Source: an uncultured Acidobacteriota bacterium
GTDB lineage: Bacteria; Acidobacteriota; Thermoanaerobaculia; UBA5066; Gp7-AA6
Assembly: GCA_963707935.1 (NCBI GenBank)
Contig: CAVPRN010000001.1
Location: forward strand, 589,030-653,029
Direction of reading: 5' to 3'
Length of the DNA: 64,000 nucleotides
The translations under genes were made by a program, and so were the position numbers. Below the pieces are notes generated by a model. That model did no database searches, was not told the DNA's origin, and worked only from the letters and a program-made list of their open reading frames with translations. Shown here piece after piece: positions 597 to 5,663 of the stretch (position 1 is its first letter; each line of letters starts with the position of its first letter).

Positions 597-2460
597 GTGG
601 ACTTCGACGTCCTCGTCATCGGCGGCGGGCATGCGGGCATCGAGGCGGCGCACGCCGCGGCGCGCCTCGGCCGCCGCACGGCCCTGCTGACCGCGGCGAT
701 CCCGGCGATCGGCCGCATGTCGTGCAATCCCGCGATCGGCGGGCTCGCCAAGGGGCAGCTCGTGCGCGAGATCGACGCCCTGGGCGGGCTCATGGGGACG
801 CTCGCCGACGGCGCCGGCATCCAGTTCAAGATCCTGAACCGCTCCCGCGGGCCGGCCGTGTGGGGGCCCCGCGCCCAATGCGATCGGGCGCTCTACGCGA
901 AGCTCGCTCGCGAAGCCCTCGAGAAAACACCCGGCCTGACCCTCGTCGAAGGAATGGCCGAGGAGCTCCTCGAGGAGGACGGGCGGATCGCCGGCGCCAC
1001 GACGGCCGGCGGCGAGAGGATCGGTGCGCGCGCCGTGGTCGTCACCGCGGGGACGTTCCTGCGCGGTCTCATGCACACGGGCGAGCGCCAGACCGCGGGG
1101 GGGCGCGTCGGGGAAGCCGCCGCGGTCGGACTCTCCGCTGCGCTCGCGCGCCTCGGTCTGCGCCTCGGCCGCTTCAAGACGGGGACGCCTCCGCGGGTCC
1201 ACCGCGACTCGGTGGAATACGCCGCCTGCCAGCCGCAGCGGGGGGACGAGCCCCCCGTTCCCTTCTCGTTCCGCACCGAACGCCTCTCCGAGTCGCAGGC
1301 GTTCTGCTGGCTGACTTCCACCAACGAGCGCGTGCACGCGCTCATCCGCGAGAACCTCGCACCGGAGCCCGATGTACTCGGGGCGAATCCAGGGGATCGG
1401 CCCGCGCTACTGCCCGTCGGTCGAGGACAAGGTGGTCAAGTTCGCCGACAAGCCGAAGCACACGCTCTTTCTCGAGCCGGAGGGATGGGACGCCCCGGAG
1501 ATCTACATCAACGGCCTCTCGACGTCGCTTCCCGAGGAGATCCAGCGCCGCATCCTGGCCGAGATCCCCGGCCTCGAGCGCGCGGCCATGATCCGCCCGG
1601 GCTACGCGGTCGAATACGACTACAGCTTCCCGGACCAGCTCGCTTCGACGCTCGAGGCGCGCGGAATTCCGGGCCTCTTCCTCGCGGGACAGATCAACGG
1701 GACATCGGGCTACGAGGAAGCGGCCGCGCAGGGCCTCTGGGCCGGCATCAACGCCGCCCTGGACGTGGCGGGAGAGGCGCCGTTCCTGCTCGAGCGCTCG
1801 GAGGCGTACGCGGCGGTGATGGTGGACGACCTCATCCGGACCGGCCTCGAAGAGCCGTATCGCCTCTTTACCTCCCGGGCCGAATACCGCCTGCTTCTCG
1901 GCGTGGACTCGGTCCTGCCGAGGCTCCTCCCGCATGGAAGGCGCCTGGGCTTGATCGGCGAAGCCGAGTACGAGCGGGCCATGCGGAGCGAAAGGCGTCT
2001 GGCCGCCGCCATGCATCGACTCTCGAGTGAGACAATTATTCCCACTGCCGTGAAACGCGCGGAGATGCTCGAAGCTCTCGGAATCGCCGTCGACGCGCCG
2101 ACAACCGCATATAATCTTCTGAAAAGGAACGACTTGTCGGTCGAAGGTCTGGCCGCATGGGCCCCGGCGGCCTTCGAGGGACTGAGCCGCGAGGAGCTGT
2201 CGGTCCTCGAAACGCGGGTGCGCTACGAGGGATACATCCGGCGCGAGAACGATCGGGTCGAGCGATTGAAGCCGCTCGAGTCGCGGGCGATCCCGCCGGA
2301 CTTCCGCTACGAAGAGATCCCCGGCCTCTCGCGGGAGGTGGTCGAGAAGTGCCGCAAGCGCCTGCCGCGCACCGTGGGCGAAGCCTCTCGGATCCCGGGC
2401 GTGACGCCGGCGGCGGTGGCGGTAATCTCCGCGTGTGTTGCGAGGAGCGCGCGAGCCTGA
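597..2460 (+). CDS. mnmG: tRNA uridine 5-carboxymethylaminomethyl modification enzyme MnmG (GidA), with one apparent +1 frameshift near 1359
   Basis: N-terminal FAD motif [18 protein letters not shown]. The frame starting at 597 reads ...IRENL and the frame containing 1372 continues [24 protein letters not shown]. Removing one base around 1356-1360 restores the canonical [11 protein letters not shown] junction. Confidence 0.85.
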
Positions 2461-3097
2461 GGATTTCGAGCGGCTGCTCGAGAGCGGCCTTCCCCGTTTC
2501 GGTCTCGACCTTCCGGCCAGATCCCTTTCGGCGCTCGCCCGCTACCTCGACGAGCTCGATCGCTGGCGCCAGAGGATCAATCTCACCGGGAATCTGTCGC
2601 GCGTCGAGGTCGCGGAGCACGCCCTCGAGTCCGCCTTCGGCGCCGACTTAATTCCTCATGGCGCTCGAGTTATTGACATCGGGTCGGGCGCCGGCTTCCC
2701 TGGGCTGCCCCTCGCCATCGCGAAGCCCGAGCTGTCAATAACGCTCACTGAGCCTCGGGGAAAACGAGCTGCCTTCTTGAAGCACGTTTGCCGCTCTCTC
2801 AATCTTGCAAACACCGAGGTTCTCGAGGCGCGACTGCCGTATGTCGACGGAGGCAAATGGGATGTCGCGACGTCGAGGGCGGCGGGAGACTTGTCTGAGA
2901 TTCTTGGTGGGGCCACTTTTCTCTCACCCAGGGGAGTTCTCGTCGTCTGGACGACGTCGAGGAAGGCCCGAGCGGATCCGCCCCGAGAGTTTCGACTCTC
3001 GAGAAGTCTTCGGATTCCCGAGTCCCGTGACAAAGTCATCGCCGTCTACGAGAAGGAAGCCGCCGACGGATCCCCGAACGGGCCACGACCGACCTAA
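2435..3097 (+). CDS. rsmG: 16S rRNA (guanine527-N7)-methyltransferase RsmG (GidB)
   Basis: SAM-binding motif [17 protein letters not shown], typical size, and position after mnmG. Start codon is uncertain (GTG 2435 or TTG 2438, overlapping the mnmG end). Confidence 0.85.
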
Positions 3098-3612
3098 CGA
3101 CCCGGCAGCAAGGGTCCCGGGTCGCCGAACCACTCCGCATTTCGGGGAGAGGCCTCGGACAGCTTGTGCGCGAGCGAATCGAGCGTGTCACCGCGCTGTC
3201 GAGGGGGTAGCTTCTTGACGGCGACCATCTCCTTCCAGATTGCATAGGAACGCGTCTTTAGCCCCCGCAGAGGGTAGATGTCGAAGTGAGAGACGATTCG
3301 ATCGAGCTCGACCGTCTTGCATACGCGGTAATACGCGGCGGCCTTTGTAAACCCACTCCGGGGGATCGGAGCTCTCGGCTTCACGCGATAGATCCTGCCT
3401 GCGCCGCCGAAGAAGATCCGGATAGCGTCCAGCAGGGCGGCATCCGCCCCGGTTAGCTTGATCGCAAAATAAAGTGCCATCTGGCGTCCGGACCGGCTGT
3501 AAGTGAAGCAGCCTTCCCCCTCGACGAAGCCGGTTATGTACCAGGGGTCCAAAGCGGGAGGGTGCTGGGACACGTGCAATGATACCTCGATTTCATGTTT
3601 CGGATGAAACAT
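3094..3612 (-). CDS. Free-standing single-motif LAGLIDADG-family homing endonuclease
   Basis: From Met at 3612: MFHPKHE...DPWYITGFVEGEGCFTYSRSG..LYFAIKL..DAALLDAIRIFFGGAGRIY...IVSHFDIYPLRGLKTRSY. This shows the LAGLIDADG core (ITGFVEGEGCF) and downstream family blocks. About 172 aa, I-CreI-like size. Visibly lower G+C than its neighbours. Confidence 0.8.
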   Translation of the reverse strand: MFHPKHEIEVSLHVSQHPPALDPWYITGFVEGEGCFTYSRSGRQMALYFAIKLTGADAALLDAIRIFFGGAGRIYRVKPRAPIPRSGFTKAAAYYRVCKTVELDRIVSHFDIYPLRGLKTRSYAIWKEMVAVKKLPPRQRGDTLDSLAHKLSEASPRNAEWFGDPGPLLPGR

Positions 3613-3652
3613 CGTTTCGCAAACGCGAGAAGCGCTGTTAGGCTCTCGAAAC

Positions 3653-4429
3653 GTGATTCCCTCGGAGAATCGTACGGTAGCGGTTGCTAACCAGAAGGGC
3701 GGCGTCGGGAAGACCACAACCGCCATCAACCTGGCGGCGTCCCTCGCGGCCCTCGACCGCCGGGTTCTGCTGGCAGATCTCGACCCTCAGGCCAATGCCA
3801 CCTCGGGCCTCGGATTCCCGCGCTCCCAAGGCGTCTCCGGTACATACGAGGCTCTCCTGGGGGGTGGTGCCTCAAAGTGGATCCGGCCGACCCAATTCCC
3901 GAATCTTTCGATACTGCCATCGGGGCGAGATCTCGTAGGTGCTGAGATCGAGCTCGTCGAACGTGAGGATCGCGAGCATTGCCTGAGGGCGGCGCTTTCG
4001 CCAGTCGCCGAGCGGTTCGACTTCATCCTGATCGACTGCCCTCCCTCCCTATCCCTCCTGACGGTCAACGCGCTCTCGGCGGCCGACTCCGTGCTCGTCC
4101 CCATGCAGACCGAGTACTTCGCGCTCGAGGGGGTGAGCGAGCTCCTGAACACAGTCGAGCGGGTCCGCAACGCCTTCAATCCGGCCGTGCGGCTGGAAGG
4201 GATCGTCTTGACGATGTTCGACGAGCGGACTAACCTCGCCAGGCAGGTCATCGACGACATCCGAAAGCACCTCGGAGGAAGCGTTTTCGACACCGTGATA
4301 CCGAGAAACGTCCGTCTGGCTGAGGCCCCGTCTTTCGGAAAGCCGGCCCTCGCGTACGACGTGAAGTCGAAAGGGGCGGAGGCCTATCTGGCGCTTGCCC
4401 GCGAGCTTCTGAGGAGGCGGGGAGCTTGA
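3653..4429 (+). CDS. parA: Chromosome partitioning ATPase ParA/Soj
   Basis: Deviant Walker A motif VANQKGGVGKTTTAINLA and ParA-family blocks throughout. GTG start. Confidence 0.9.
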   Translation: MIPSENRTVAVANQKGGVGKTTTAINLAASLAALDRRVLLADLDPQANATSGLGFPRSQGVSGTYEALLGGGASKWIRPTQFPNLSILPSGRDLVGAEIELVEREDREHCLRAALSPVAERFDFILIDCPPSLSLLTVNALSAADSVLVPMQTEYFALEGVSELLNTVERVRNAFNPAVRLEGIVLTMFDERTNLARQVIDDIRKHLGGSVFDTVIPRNVRLAEAPSFGKPALAYDVKSKGAEAYLALARELLRRRGA

Positions 4430-5283
4430 CGGCCCGCAAGCAGGTCCTGGGTCGAGGTCTCTCAGCTCTCCTTCCGGGAGGGGAGGACGTTCCACGGGGA
4501 ACGCCTCTTCTGGAGGTCGAGATCGACAGGCTGGTGACGGGGCGGTTCCAGCCCCGGCGGGGCTTCGAGGAGGGGAGCCTGGCGGAGCTCGCGGCTTCGA
4601 TCCGGGAGCACGGGGTCGTGCAGCCTCTCGTCGTCGTCGTCAGCGGAGACCGCTACGAGATCGTCGCCGGAGAGCGCCGGTTCCGCGCCGCGCGCCTGGC
4701 GGGCCTCGAGCGGGTCCCCGTCGTCGTTCGGGAGAGGCCGTCGGACCGGGAACTCCTCGAGCTCGCCCTGGTCGAGAACCTCCAGAGAGAGGACCTGAAC
4801 GCAATGGAGGAGGCCGAGGCCTTCGGCCGTCTGCGTGAGGAGTTCTCTCTGACCCAGGAGCAGATCGCCGCGAGGGTCGGCAAGGACCGCGCAACCGTCG
4901 CTAACTCATTGAGATTATTGAAGTTATCGTCAAGCGTCAAGGATCTCATCCGGAGCGGAGCGCTCTCGGGGGGCCACGCCCGCGCAATTGCCTCCCTTCC
5001 CACCCCGGATGAGCAGCAGGGGCTCGCCGAGGAGGTCATCCGGCGCGGTCTCTCGGTCCGGCAGACGGAGAAGCGAGTCGCGCGCATCTCGGGGGGGCCG
5101 CGCGTCTTGCGCGAGAAGCGCCGCGACCCCTTCACGCGCGACGCCGAGGAGAAGCTGTCGCGCCACCTCCAGACCCGCGCGCGAATCGTGCGCCGCCGGC
5201 GCGGGGGAAGGATCGAGCTCGGGTTTTCCTCCGAGGAGGAGCTGATCGGACTCTACGAGCGGCTGACGCGGGAGGCACGATGA
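4426..5283 (+). CDS. parB: Chromosome partitioning protein ParB/Spo0J
   Basis: GRGLSALL N-terminal box, GERRFRAARLAG arginine patch, and an HTH region. The TTG start overlaps the parA stop. Confidence 0.9.
   Translation: MTARKQVLGRGLSALLPGGEDVPRGTPLLEVEIDRLVTGRFQPRRGFEEGSLAELAASIREHGVVQPLVVVVSGDRYEIVAGERRFRAARLAGLERVPVVVRERPSDRELLELALVENLQREDLNAMEEAEAFGRLREEFSLTQEQIAARVGKDRATVANSLRLLKLSSSVKDLIRSGALSGGHARAIASLPTPDEQQGLAEEVIRRGLSVRQTEKRVARISGGPRVLREKRRDPFTRDAEEKLSRHLQTRARIVRRRRGGRIELGFSSEEELIGLYERLTREAR
4488..4503. promoter_or_regulatory. Candidate parS centromere site inside the parB 5' region
   Basis: CGTTCCACGGGGAACG is one substitution from the perfect palindrome CGTTCCACGTGGAACG. Its 14-nt core matches the parS core GTTNCACGTGNAAC at 13 of 14 positions. 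Confidence 0.4.
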
Positions 5284-5663
5284 AGTTGAAGACCGAGGGC
5301 ACGTCGTTGAACGGATTCCTCGACAAGGGGAGTCACTTCCAGGGGGAGCTCGAGTTCGAGGAGACCTTCCGCATCGACGGGAAGTTCGAGGGGAAGATCC
5401 GCTCGGGAAGCGAGCTCATCCTCGGCGACTCCGCCGAGGTCGACGGCGAGATCGAGGTCGGCCGTATCTCGGTCAACGGAATGCTCAAGGGCACCGTGCG
5501 GGCGACGGAGCGCATCGAGCTCCACGCGCGGGCGCGCGTCGAAGCGGACCTTTCGACGCCGGTTCTCAAGATCGAAGAGGGGGCGCGTTTCGACGGCTCG
5601 TGCCGGATGGGAGAATCCGCGAGATCGAACGTGATCGACCTCCCTTCGGCGCCGCGCAAGTGA
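5280..5663 (+). CDS. Bactofilin-family cytoskeletal protein
   Basis: Beta-helical bactofilin (DUF583) pattern: FQGELEFEETFRIDGKFEGKIRSGSELILGDSAEVDGEIEVGRISVNGMLKGTVRATERIELHARARVEADL. Its ATG overlaps the parB stop (ATGA). Confidence 0.85.
   Translation: MKLKTEGTSLNGFLDKGSHFQGELEFEETFRIDGKFEGKIRSGSELILGDSAEVDGEIEVGRISVNGMLKGTVRATERIELHARARVEADLSTPVLKIEEGARFDGSCRMGESARSNVIDLPSAPRK

Follow-up and report, generated by a model that had tools for sequence, protein, structure and literature searches.

A free-standing LAGLIDADG endonuclease gene between rsmG and parA, with parS as its candidate homing target

Background

How does a homing endonuclease gene come to stand by itself in a bacterial chromosome, between rsmG and parA? 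The question is raised by a stretch of 64,000 nucleotides (nt) from an uncultured Acidobacteriota bacterium (contig CAVPRN010000001.1), which we refer to as the window. Here, an open reading frame (ORF) for a LAGLIDADG protein lies antisense between the two genes. To our knowledge, free-standing LAGLIDADG genes in bacterial chromosomes are hardly described, and full-text literature searches turned up no publication that connects homing endonucleases with parS or parAB. The reading we favor, with a probability of roughly 0.6, is that the gene is a homing endonuclease gene that arrived with co-converted flanks, and that its homing target is the partition site parS. The two halves of this statement are not equally secure. 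A homing element accompanied by conversion is highly probable, while for parS as the site cut by the enzyme, a claim drawn from sequence comparison, we see an even chance.

An intact endonuclease of the homodimer class

The gene occupies positions 3094..3612 or, with a later start, 3094..3579 of the reverse strand. It lies tail to tail with rsmG (2435..3097, forward strand; PF02527, E=2.9e-33), which encodes the 16S rRNA m7G527 methyltransferase, and is divergent from parA (3653..4429, forward strand; Pfam AAA_31, CbiA and ParA matches), from which 40-70 nt separate it. The rsmG stop TAA (3095-3097) and the endonuclease stop TAG (3096-3094) share 2 nt, and the ORFs overlap by 4 nt. Both the antisense location and the 4-nt overlap are as the first-pass annotation of the window had described them. 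That annotation also proposed a 172-amino-acid, single-motif LAGLIDADG protein; the class stands, but the length probably does not. The frame from the ATG at 3612 does encode 172 amino acids and remains open as far as a TTG at 3729. However, the TTG at 3579, which gives 161 amino acids, is the more likely start because GAGG lies 8 nt upstream (a ribosome-binding site at 3587-3590) and because the public gene call P0001 uses it. The ATG at 3612 sits on a palindrome (3596-3611) described below.

The protein matches Pfam family PF00961 (LAGLIDADG_1) over profile positions 1-101 of 102 (E=4.2e-12; 47.3 bits for a cut-off of 23.1). PF00961 was the sole domain in the Pfam scan, which found no helix-turn-helix domain. 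An AlphaFold2 model computed from a 31-sequence alignment has a predicted local distance difference test score of 91.2 and shows an alpha-beta-beta-alpha-beta-beta-alpha core followed by two C-terminal helices; the core elements are helix 23-33, strands 34-41 and 44-54, helix 55-67, strands 73-77 and 92-97, and helix 100-112. The 50 best Foldseek matches shown are all LAGLIDADG nucleases, comprising single domains of the I-OnuI family and the homodimeric I-TnaI, the best single-domain structural match (template modeling score 0.72 on the target). A sequence search of the PDB retrieved I-PanMI at E=3e-14, with GFVEGEG aligned to GFVDGEG and E33 to the glutamate of DGEG.

Each chain of 161-172 amino acids thus carries a single motif, ITGFVEGEG. 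A missing catalytic acidic residue would have spoken against an active enzyme, but E33 is present and the catalytic residues E31, E33 and K119 are all kept. Among 121 family members, the E33 position is acidic in 110, and K119 is lysine in 116 and arginine in five. F36, T37, S39, R40, Y48, G72, Y75, R96, H109, K119 and W126 are conserved at 96-100%. The DNA-facing beta-strand residues in this set (F36, T37, S39, R40, Y48, Y75 and R96) approach 100% conservation across phyla, which fits a conserved target. A C-terminal helical extension (W126, K133, L151) is also conserved in the par-type relatives defined below. The single motif, the structural match to I-TnaI and a conserved palindrome upstream of the gene would fit a protein that acts as a homodimer on a palindromic or pseudopalindromic site.

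A scan of positions 2300-3900 with Rfam gave no intron match, and no group I intron remnant was found around the gene. Since the ORF is, in addition, separate from and antisense to rsmG, the gene is free-standing and not intron-borne, as had been supposed. Taken together, sequence and model describe an intact, free-standing homing endonuclease gene of the single-domain, homodimer-type LAGLIDADG class, with predicted nuclease activity.

Empty sites in close relatives

Relatives were sampled neutrally, through RsmG/rsmG and ParB and not through the endonuclease. Presence or absence of the gene was scored by tblastn, as gene calls in loci L173 and L177 are unreliable. (Both are long-read metagenome contigs with split or uncalled genes: mnmG, parA and rsmG, and in L173 the endonuclease as well.) The closest relative found, L172, is 89-91% identical to the window in MnmG, 89% in ParA, 88% in ParB and 93% in bactofilin, with flanks at about 85-93% nucleotide identity. 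It has no endonuclease gene. Instead, a 53-nt spacer separates its rsmG and parA, and this spacer contains a perfect parS.

The gene is likewise absent from L174, L175, L176 and L177, that is, from five of the six neutrally sampled clade members in all; the sixth, L173, carries an uncalled copy. The site is occupied in the window, L013 and L173. Of the five empty sites, four have a perfect parS core (GTTCCACGTGGAAC) located 10-14 nt beyond the stop codon of rsmG, and L175 has the same site with a CGGG center. In a host tree built from MnmG, ParA and ParB, carriers and non-carriers are interleaved, with at least five state changes. The window (carrier) and L172 (empty) are sisters with 100/100 support; L013 (carrier) groups with L175 and L176 (both empty), beside L177 (empty); L173 (carrier) groups with L174 (empty); and L004, L014 and L016 all carry the gene. 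Presence/absence polymorphism at one site, with the empty site intact, is a trait of mobile elements. The comparison of the rsmG-parA junction in close relatives, proposed in the first-pass annotation, therefore yields empty sites with parS in the spacer, and not a gene common to all relatives. Although the first six contexts inspected were all occupied, an ancient universal resident was dropped for this clade once the relatives sampled through rsmG and ParB proved empty.

A conversion tract and a chimeric rsmG

If the gene arrived by homing, the sequences on either side may have been copied with it. Nucleotide identity between the window and L172 is 0.86-0.87 in mnmG and 0.79-0.81 in rsmG up to 2710 (2435-2710), then falls to 0.53-0.56 in rsmG 2711-2990, the background level between any two clade members. 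It is 0.72 over the first 108 nt of parA, 0.90 in the 3' part of parA and 0.84 in parB. A maximum chi-squared scan of the pair places the best break at 2701 (chi-squared 42.3, permutation p<0.001); four control pairs gave no significant break, and the gene-less pair L175/L176 is flat across rsmG (0.66-0.73 over 2435-2990). RsmG protein identity to L172 drops in parallel, from 74% in the N-terminal part to 46% in the C-terminal part. Relative to L172, rsmG is thus chimeric: its 5' 266 nt are host-like and its 3' part of approximately 390 nt is as divergent as between any two clade members. The two ends of rsmG do differ in history, and the co-conversion of flanks that had been suggested is supported. 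The break is indeed inside rsmG, but at 2701 and not at about 2640 as first proposed.

On the other side, identity to L172 recovers about 100 nt into parA, with a diffuse edge. Over parA 3653-3760, L172 and L176 are 0.856 identical, while the window and L176 are 0.692 identical; the 3' part of rsmG in L172 is also slightly closer to L175 and L176 than is that of the window. Because the window, and not L172, is the outlier in the 5' end of parA and slightly so in the rsmG 3' part, it looks from these sequences as if the tract was acquired by the window's lineage. We infer a gene conversion tract spanning 2701..3760. It runs from the 3' part of rsmG across the endonuclease gene and the spacer into parA, of which it takes in roughly the first 100 nt. 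Its left edge falls in the coding sequence of the S-adenosylmethionine-binding motif I of RsmG (2675-2720) and its right edge near the ParA Walker A motif (about 3683-3730). Exchange with a diverged donor would be expected to resolve in such places, the conserved islands closest to the gene.

As a separate observation, identity among L004-L016 and L172-L177 is 65-91% in ParB and MnmG but only 43-67% in RsmG, and rsmG holds little host-congruent signal beyond the N-terminal part shared by the window and L172. This divergence may reflect repeated exchange at the locus, or simply weak constraint.

An older origin has to be weighed at this point. The clade ancestor may have carried the gene, which L172 and L174-L177 then lost by deletion or by conversion to an empty allele; the rsmG break would be an ordinary recombination event at a fast-evolving gene. 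Part of the evidence is compatible with such vertical descent and weighs against homing. On the endonuclease tree, a history of vertical descent with several losses cannot be rejected (approximately unbiased test, p=0.32; 147 columns with little signal), and the endonuclease clade of L004, L014 and L016 matches a host clade. Endonuclease identity tracks ParA identity (Mantel r=0.83, with none of 2,000 permutations as high). Composition at third codon positions (GC3) of the endonuclease follows host G+C, with 0.27-0.47 in Omnitrophota versus about 0.7 here, and a GC3 trough over rsmG and the endonuclease gene is common to all carrier relatives. However, vertical descent needs at least four independent losses among 12 taxa and leaves empty sites with a clean, perfect parS and no scar. 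It also conflicts with the outlier position of the window relative to L175 and L176, and with the window's endonuclease branch (0.46), which is about 2.7 times as long as its host branch. We therefore consider it unlikely.

A parS-like array is the constant neighbor of the gene

Which site would a homing enzyme at this locus recognize? The only constant neighbor of the par-type genes is a parS-like array just upstream. A parS-like site lies within 140 nt upstream of the LDPW motif in 40 of 47 par-type loci, against 0.006 expected, and in none of 37 intron-type loci. In the aligned family, sites are phased by 15 nt. Unit 1, GTTCCnCGTG(A/G)AAA (GTTCCACGTGAAAA), is a near-perfect parS with one altered arm. 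Unit 2, TGTTCC-N4-6-GAAACA, combines parS arms with a scrambled center and is flanked by AAAA and TTTT. A third parS-like unit, TTTTCACGTGGAAC, is often present; read in frame, it gives the ETFSRGT N-terminus of many homologs. No such phased array was found in 68 gene-less parA upstream regions of other bacteria, though 44% of these have parS; the regions come from a metagenome ParA scan, with ParA of 51-64% identity among the matches listed. In Omnitrophota and Nitrospirota, a sigma-70-like promoter (TTGACA-N17-TATAAT-like) precedes the array. In one Omnitrophota subclade of nine members (support 99), the middle palindrome is instead CATTGTG-N-ACAATG at all nine loci, which suggests that the site co-varies with the protein.

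The window holds a decayed version of the array: unit 1 lacks 3 nt and unit 2 lacks its outer arms. The unit 2 copy, TGTTTCGGATGAAACA (3596..3611), has perfect parS arms around a scrambled center, lies 17-32 nt upstream of the TTG and overlaps the ATG. It is one of three matches in the 64-kb window with at most three mismatches to the 16-nt parS consensus (0.47 expected by chance). Beside it, CGTTTCGCAAACG (3613..3625) is a parS remnant with three central bases missing. This is the positional homolog of the perfect parS at empty sites, and is followed by the same 'gcgag...ctgtta...GTG' spacer as in L172 and L175-L177. An extended 26-nt palindrome barely exceeds shuffled sequences (7.7 versus 6.9 pairs), and the case for it rests on conservation rather than symmetry. 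A further candidate site, GATGTTCC in L013, turned out to be rsmG coding sequence, and nothing convincing was seen elsewhere.

The array also bears on the possibility that the target lies inside rsmG, near the motif I coding sequence (about 2700), that the adjacency to parS is incidental, and that the element consists of a resistant rsmG 3' end together with the endonuclease gene. A break at 2701 in the most conserved RsmG motif, with the whole 3' end of rsmG replaced, is the pattern described for yeast WHO elements and FBA1 (PMC7282813), and rsmG adjoins the gene in Acidobacteriota, Eremiobacterota and Myxococcota. Yet about 30 Omnitrophota or Nitrospirota loci have no rsmG near the gene, and the array is the only universal neighbor. 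Moreover, the carrier/non-carrier pair L173/L174 shows no rsmG break, no duplicated rsmG fragment lies downstream, and RsmG motif I has no carrier-specific allele. Of the explanations considered here, we regard a target in rsmG as the least probable.

Perfect parS sites are depleted in carriers

An element that homes on parS would be expected to leave its mark on the parS sites of its carriers. The 64-kb window contains no site within two mismatches of the 16-nt parS consensus. Its only site within one mismatch of the 14-nt parS core lies inside parB (4488..4503, forward strand), in the DVPRGT codons, and has a synonymous central change from CACGTG to CACGGG. This parB-internal parS is perfect in four of five gene-less clade members and in none of seven carriers. 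The window, L013 and L006 have the synonymous CGTG to CGGG change, and in L173, L004, L014 and L016 the site is lost. Because parS is embedded in parB codons, here as in L172 (position 5008) and L174 (position 5046), the centromere site constrains the ParB N-terminus and is constrained by it.

On a broader scale, we counted perfect 14-nt parS cores around par loci. Forty-two loci with a catalytically intact gene (466 kb) contain two, both in L008; six loci with a dead or deleted catalytic center (59 kb) contain two, in L021 and L049, at the start of the gene; and 85 gene-less par loci (453 kb) contain 96, a cross-phylum depletion that is confounded by taxonomy. Within the clade, perfect parS is found in four of five gene-less loci versus none of eight carriers, a contrast of 13 loci and three sister pairs.

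An old family with repeated loss of catalysis

The first-pass annotation regarded a free-standing copy at a core locus as uncommon. This is true in that such genes are scarcely on record, but the gene is no isolated oddity: it belongs to an old family spread over several phyla. A protein search retrieved 142 homologs of 130-220 amino acids, all with PF00961, and 133 relatives, in two tiers, came from a scan that took one genome for each species. Par-type relatives, 37-70% identical to the window protein, lie in the origin-proximal gene cluster of at least five phyla (Acidobacteriota, Eremiobacterota, Myxococcota, Nitrospirota and Omnitrophota). Intron-type relatives, 31-40% identical, occur in Solirubrobacterales, Anaerolineales, Aquificaceae and Gammaproteobacteria and form the nearest outgroup of the par-type family. 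The five intron-type loci scanned with Rfam (L054, L055, L057, L063 and L086) are all inside 23S rRNA genes, three of them (L057, L063 and L086) with a group I intron model at threshold; L054-L091 are probably in 23S rRNA genes as well. Intron-type relatives are thus classical intron-borne enzymes. In L054 and L063, the intron ORF has 229-233 amino acids.

Gene order around the par-type copies varies. In Thermoanaerobaculia, the endonuclease gene is antisense between rsmG and parA as in the window; in one Acidobacteriota metagenome-assembled genome (MAG), all three genes are co-oriented in the same order. In Eremiobacterota, an antisense copy follows rsmG and precedes cca and then parA, these last two being oriented like rsmG. 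In Myxococcota, the gene follows rsmG in the same orientation and parA is not nearby. In Nitrospirota and in about 27 Omnitrophota loci, the order is endonuclease gene, parA, parB, all in one direction, so that in Omnitrophota the gene is the first cistron of a parAB operon. Its stop overlaps the parA start by 1 nt in the called genes of L011 and, by estimate, in most other Omnitrophota loci. The cassette is therefore found in both orientations, beside rsmG, parA, cca or other genes. In L017, an Eremiobacterota MAG, and in L028, a contig labeled Pacearchaeota that probably comes from a candidate phyla radiation bacterium, the gene is divergent from one for a CCA-adding enzyme (PolyA_pol and HD domains; L017 4550-5968, L028 4211-5794), with the parS-like array in between. 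The endonuclease tree groups by phylum, and Omnitrophota are monophyletic with support 99. We also considered carriage by phages; a search of IMG/VR gave no par-type copy and a single distant match at 34%, and this candidate was set aside.

Several copies have lost the acidic catalytic residue, which is replaced by G in L016, C in L021, A in L023, Q in L042 and S in L049, with ORFs and the FT(Y/F)SR strand intact; L053 has an internal deletion in the endonuclease. Three of four Eremiobacterota copies are affected, through different substitutions, and keep their DNA-binding residues. Such decay fits either a late phase of the homing cycle or selection for DNA binding alone.

The latter possibility leads to another view of the whole family, as domesticated DNA-binding proteins of the partition locus that bind the scrambled-center palindrome and regulate parAB/parS or their own promoter, with a vestigial nuclease. 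The Omnitrophota and Nitrospirota arrangement of promoter, array, gene, parA and parB, with stop/start overlap, would suit this role. So would the 27 Omnitrophota copies, which form one clade co-diverging with ParA (r=0.66), and the loss of the catalytic residue (to Q, A, G or V) in 11 of 121 members whose ORF and beta-sheet residues are intact. There are precedents in the self-repression by I-TevI and in the LAGLIDADG-derived WhiA, which regulates parAB2 (PMC3384342). On the other hand, the gene is dispensable in the window's clade, being absent from five of six sampled relatives, and the window array is decayed. The catalytic glutamate is kept in 91% of members, including all Omnitrophota copies, and the window protein shows neither the catalytic loss nor the added helix-turn-helix of a domesticated regulator. 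As a general explanation, domestication seems improbable to us.

A model for homing on parS

The reading that best accommodates these results is that of a parS-targeting homing endonuclease, co-opted in some lineages; cleavage is predicted from the sequences. The gene would have entered the window's lineage by double-strand-break repair templated on a diverged donor allele, and in the course of repair some 390 nt from the 3' end of rsmG and some 100 nt from the 5' end of parA would have been copied along with the gene. Both exchange junctions would have settled in the strongly conserved coding stretches closest by, those for RsmG motif I and ParA Walker A. As the homing target, the parS palindrome found at exactly this position in gene-less genomes would be the most likely, and carriers may escape self-cleavage by retaining only variant parS sites. 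The protein may also bind the scrambled-center palindrome, possibly as an autoregulator. A symmetric 16-bp target fits a homodimer and would explain both cassette orientations and the differing neighbor genes.

Several observations weigh against this reading, in addition to the tree and distance comparisons and the limits of the parS counts given above. L008, a catalytically intact locus, keeps two perfect parS cores about 120 nt upstream. Unit 1 retains the CACGTG center, so that immunity would rest on one altered arm. In Omnitrophota, the stop/start overlap with parA looks like that of a settled operon member, not of a selfish gene. Finally, rsmG GC3 is equally low in the gene-less L172 (0.74/0.69), L174 and L175.

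In its minimal form, our reading describes a clean bacterial case of homing-type co-conversion that made the core gene rsmG chimeric. Should parS prove to be the target, the enzyme would be a selfish nuclease directed against the bacterial centromere, and unexplained differences among par loci in the sequence and number of nearby parS sites would be accounted for. A natural, compact and homodimeric nuclease would then be available for a 16-bp site that most bacteria have, together with a graded series from mobile to operon-integrated to catalytically dead copies in which the domestication of homing endonucleases could be studied. More tentatively, and with somewhat less than even odds, we may hypothesize that the family as a whole homes on parS, a centromere site found almost universally, and in this way shifts its carriers toward variant parS sites only. 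It would have been captured more than once, as the gene that opens the parAB operon in Omnitrophota and, in Eremiobacterota, as a protein that has lost catalysis and binds beside parS. A selfish element would then have lived on, and later merged with, the chromosome segregation machinery.

Composition, assembly and neighboring genes

The low-G+C tract reported at first pass is real. Positions 2640-3652 have a G+C content of 0.604 versus a window mean of 0.687, a value as low as this being reached by only 0.12% of the 1013-nt windows across the 64 kb; the endonuclease gene lies within the lowest-G+C kilobase of the window. GC3 is 0.65 in the rsmG 3' part, 0.72 in the endonuclease gene and 0.77 in parA, compared to 0.85-0.93 in mnmE, mnmG, parB and the bactofilin gene. 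A compositional break is thus present as well as a break in divergence. The argument for a lower-G+C donor is weak, however: as low GC3 in rsmG is shared by the gene-less L172, L174 and L175, composition is not diagnostic of foreign origin.

Joining of unrelated contigs is unlikely to have caused the arrangement, because short public metagenome contigs cover both junctions (3054-3204 and 3524-3674) with 0-1 differences. All of these contigs derive from one study, in four public runs on soil and sediment, and the study may be the source of the window itself. The organism is at depth 2-4 in the four runs, with contigs of 150-270 nt, and no joints indicative of population polymorphism were seen in reads at that depth.

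Gene order in the window is mnmE (partial), mnmG, rsmG, the antisense LAGLIDADG ORF, parA, parB, a bactofilin gene and atp genes. The mnmG gene is split over two frames (597..2030 and 1372..2460) by a single 1-nt gap relative to L172 at 1340-1372; L172 mnmG is intact at 620 amino acids. A sequencing indel in the assembly and a true pseudogene are equally likely causes. The bactofilin gene is directly 3' of parB in every clade member, and its start and the parB stop overlap in the window (5280-5663). Next, in the window and the Thermoanaerobaculia loci, come split atp genes (b', b, delta, alpha and so on).

Comparison with known homing systems

I-CreI and I-TnaI (PDB 5gkk) are homodimeric, single-motif LAGLIDADG homing endonucleases of rRNA group I introns. 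The window protein resembles them in Pfam family, fold, length (about 150-170 amino acids), single motif and acidic residue at the motif end, and the nearest outgroup of the par-type family is a 23S rRNA gene-borne set of this class, at 31-40% identity. Homodimers are expected to have palindromic targets (PMC13619312). Unlike I-CreI and I-TnaI, the window gene lies outside any intron or intein, in an intergenic chromosomal spacer; its presumed target is parS and not rDNA, and the par-type family has a conserved C-terminal helical extension.

In phage T4, the Seg and Mob endonucleases have free-standing genes of their own, placed between conserved genes; break repair spreads them and co-converts the flanking markers, and their distribution among close relatives is patchy. 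The window gene is likewise stand-alone between conserved genes, with co-converted flanks and a patchy distribution among close relatives. It differs in being a LAGLIDADG gene on a cellular chromosome, whereas Seg and Mob are GIY-YIG or HNH enzymes of phage genomes, and no par-type copy was found in IMG/VR. Free-standing homing endonuclease genes of T4 are mentioned in PMC13619312.

In yeast, each integration of a WHO element replaces the 3' end of FBA1, carriers hold resistant alleles, and one lineage has been domesticated (PMC7282813). As in this WHO/HO system, a LAGLIDADG-type gene stands here beside a core gene whose two ends differ in history. WHO proteins, however, derive from inteins, consist of two domains plus a zinc finger, and have the FBA1 coding sequence as their target (PMC7282813), whereas the window protein is single-domain, its constant neighbor is parS and a duplicated gene fragment is absent.

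Regulatory roles are known for WhiA, which acts on the parAB operon (parAB2), and for I-TevI, which represses its own promoter (PMC3384342). The upstream palindrome and the catalytically dead, otherwise intact Eremiobacterota copies suggest a similar side role. WhiA (DUF199) has two degenerate LAGLIDADG domains and a helix-turn-helix, and its catalytic residues are gone, while the window protein keeps E31, E33 and K119.

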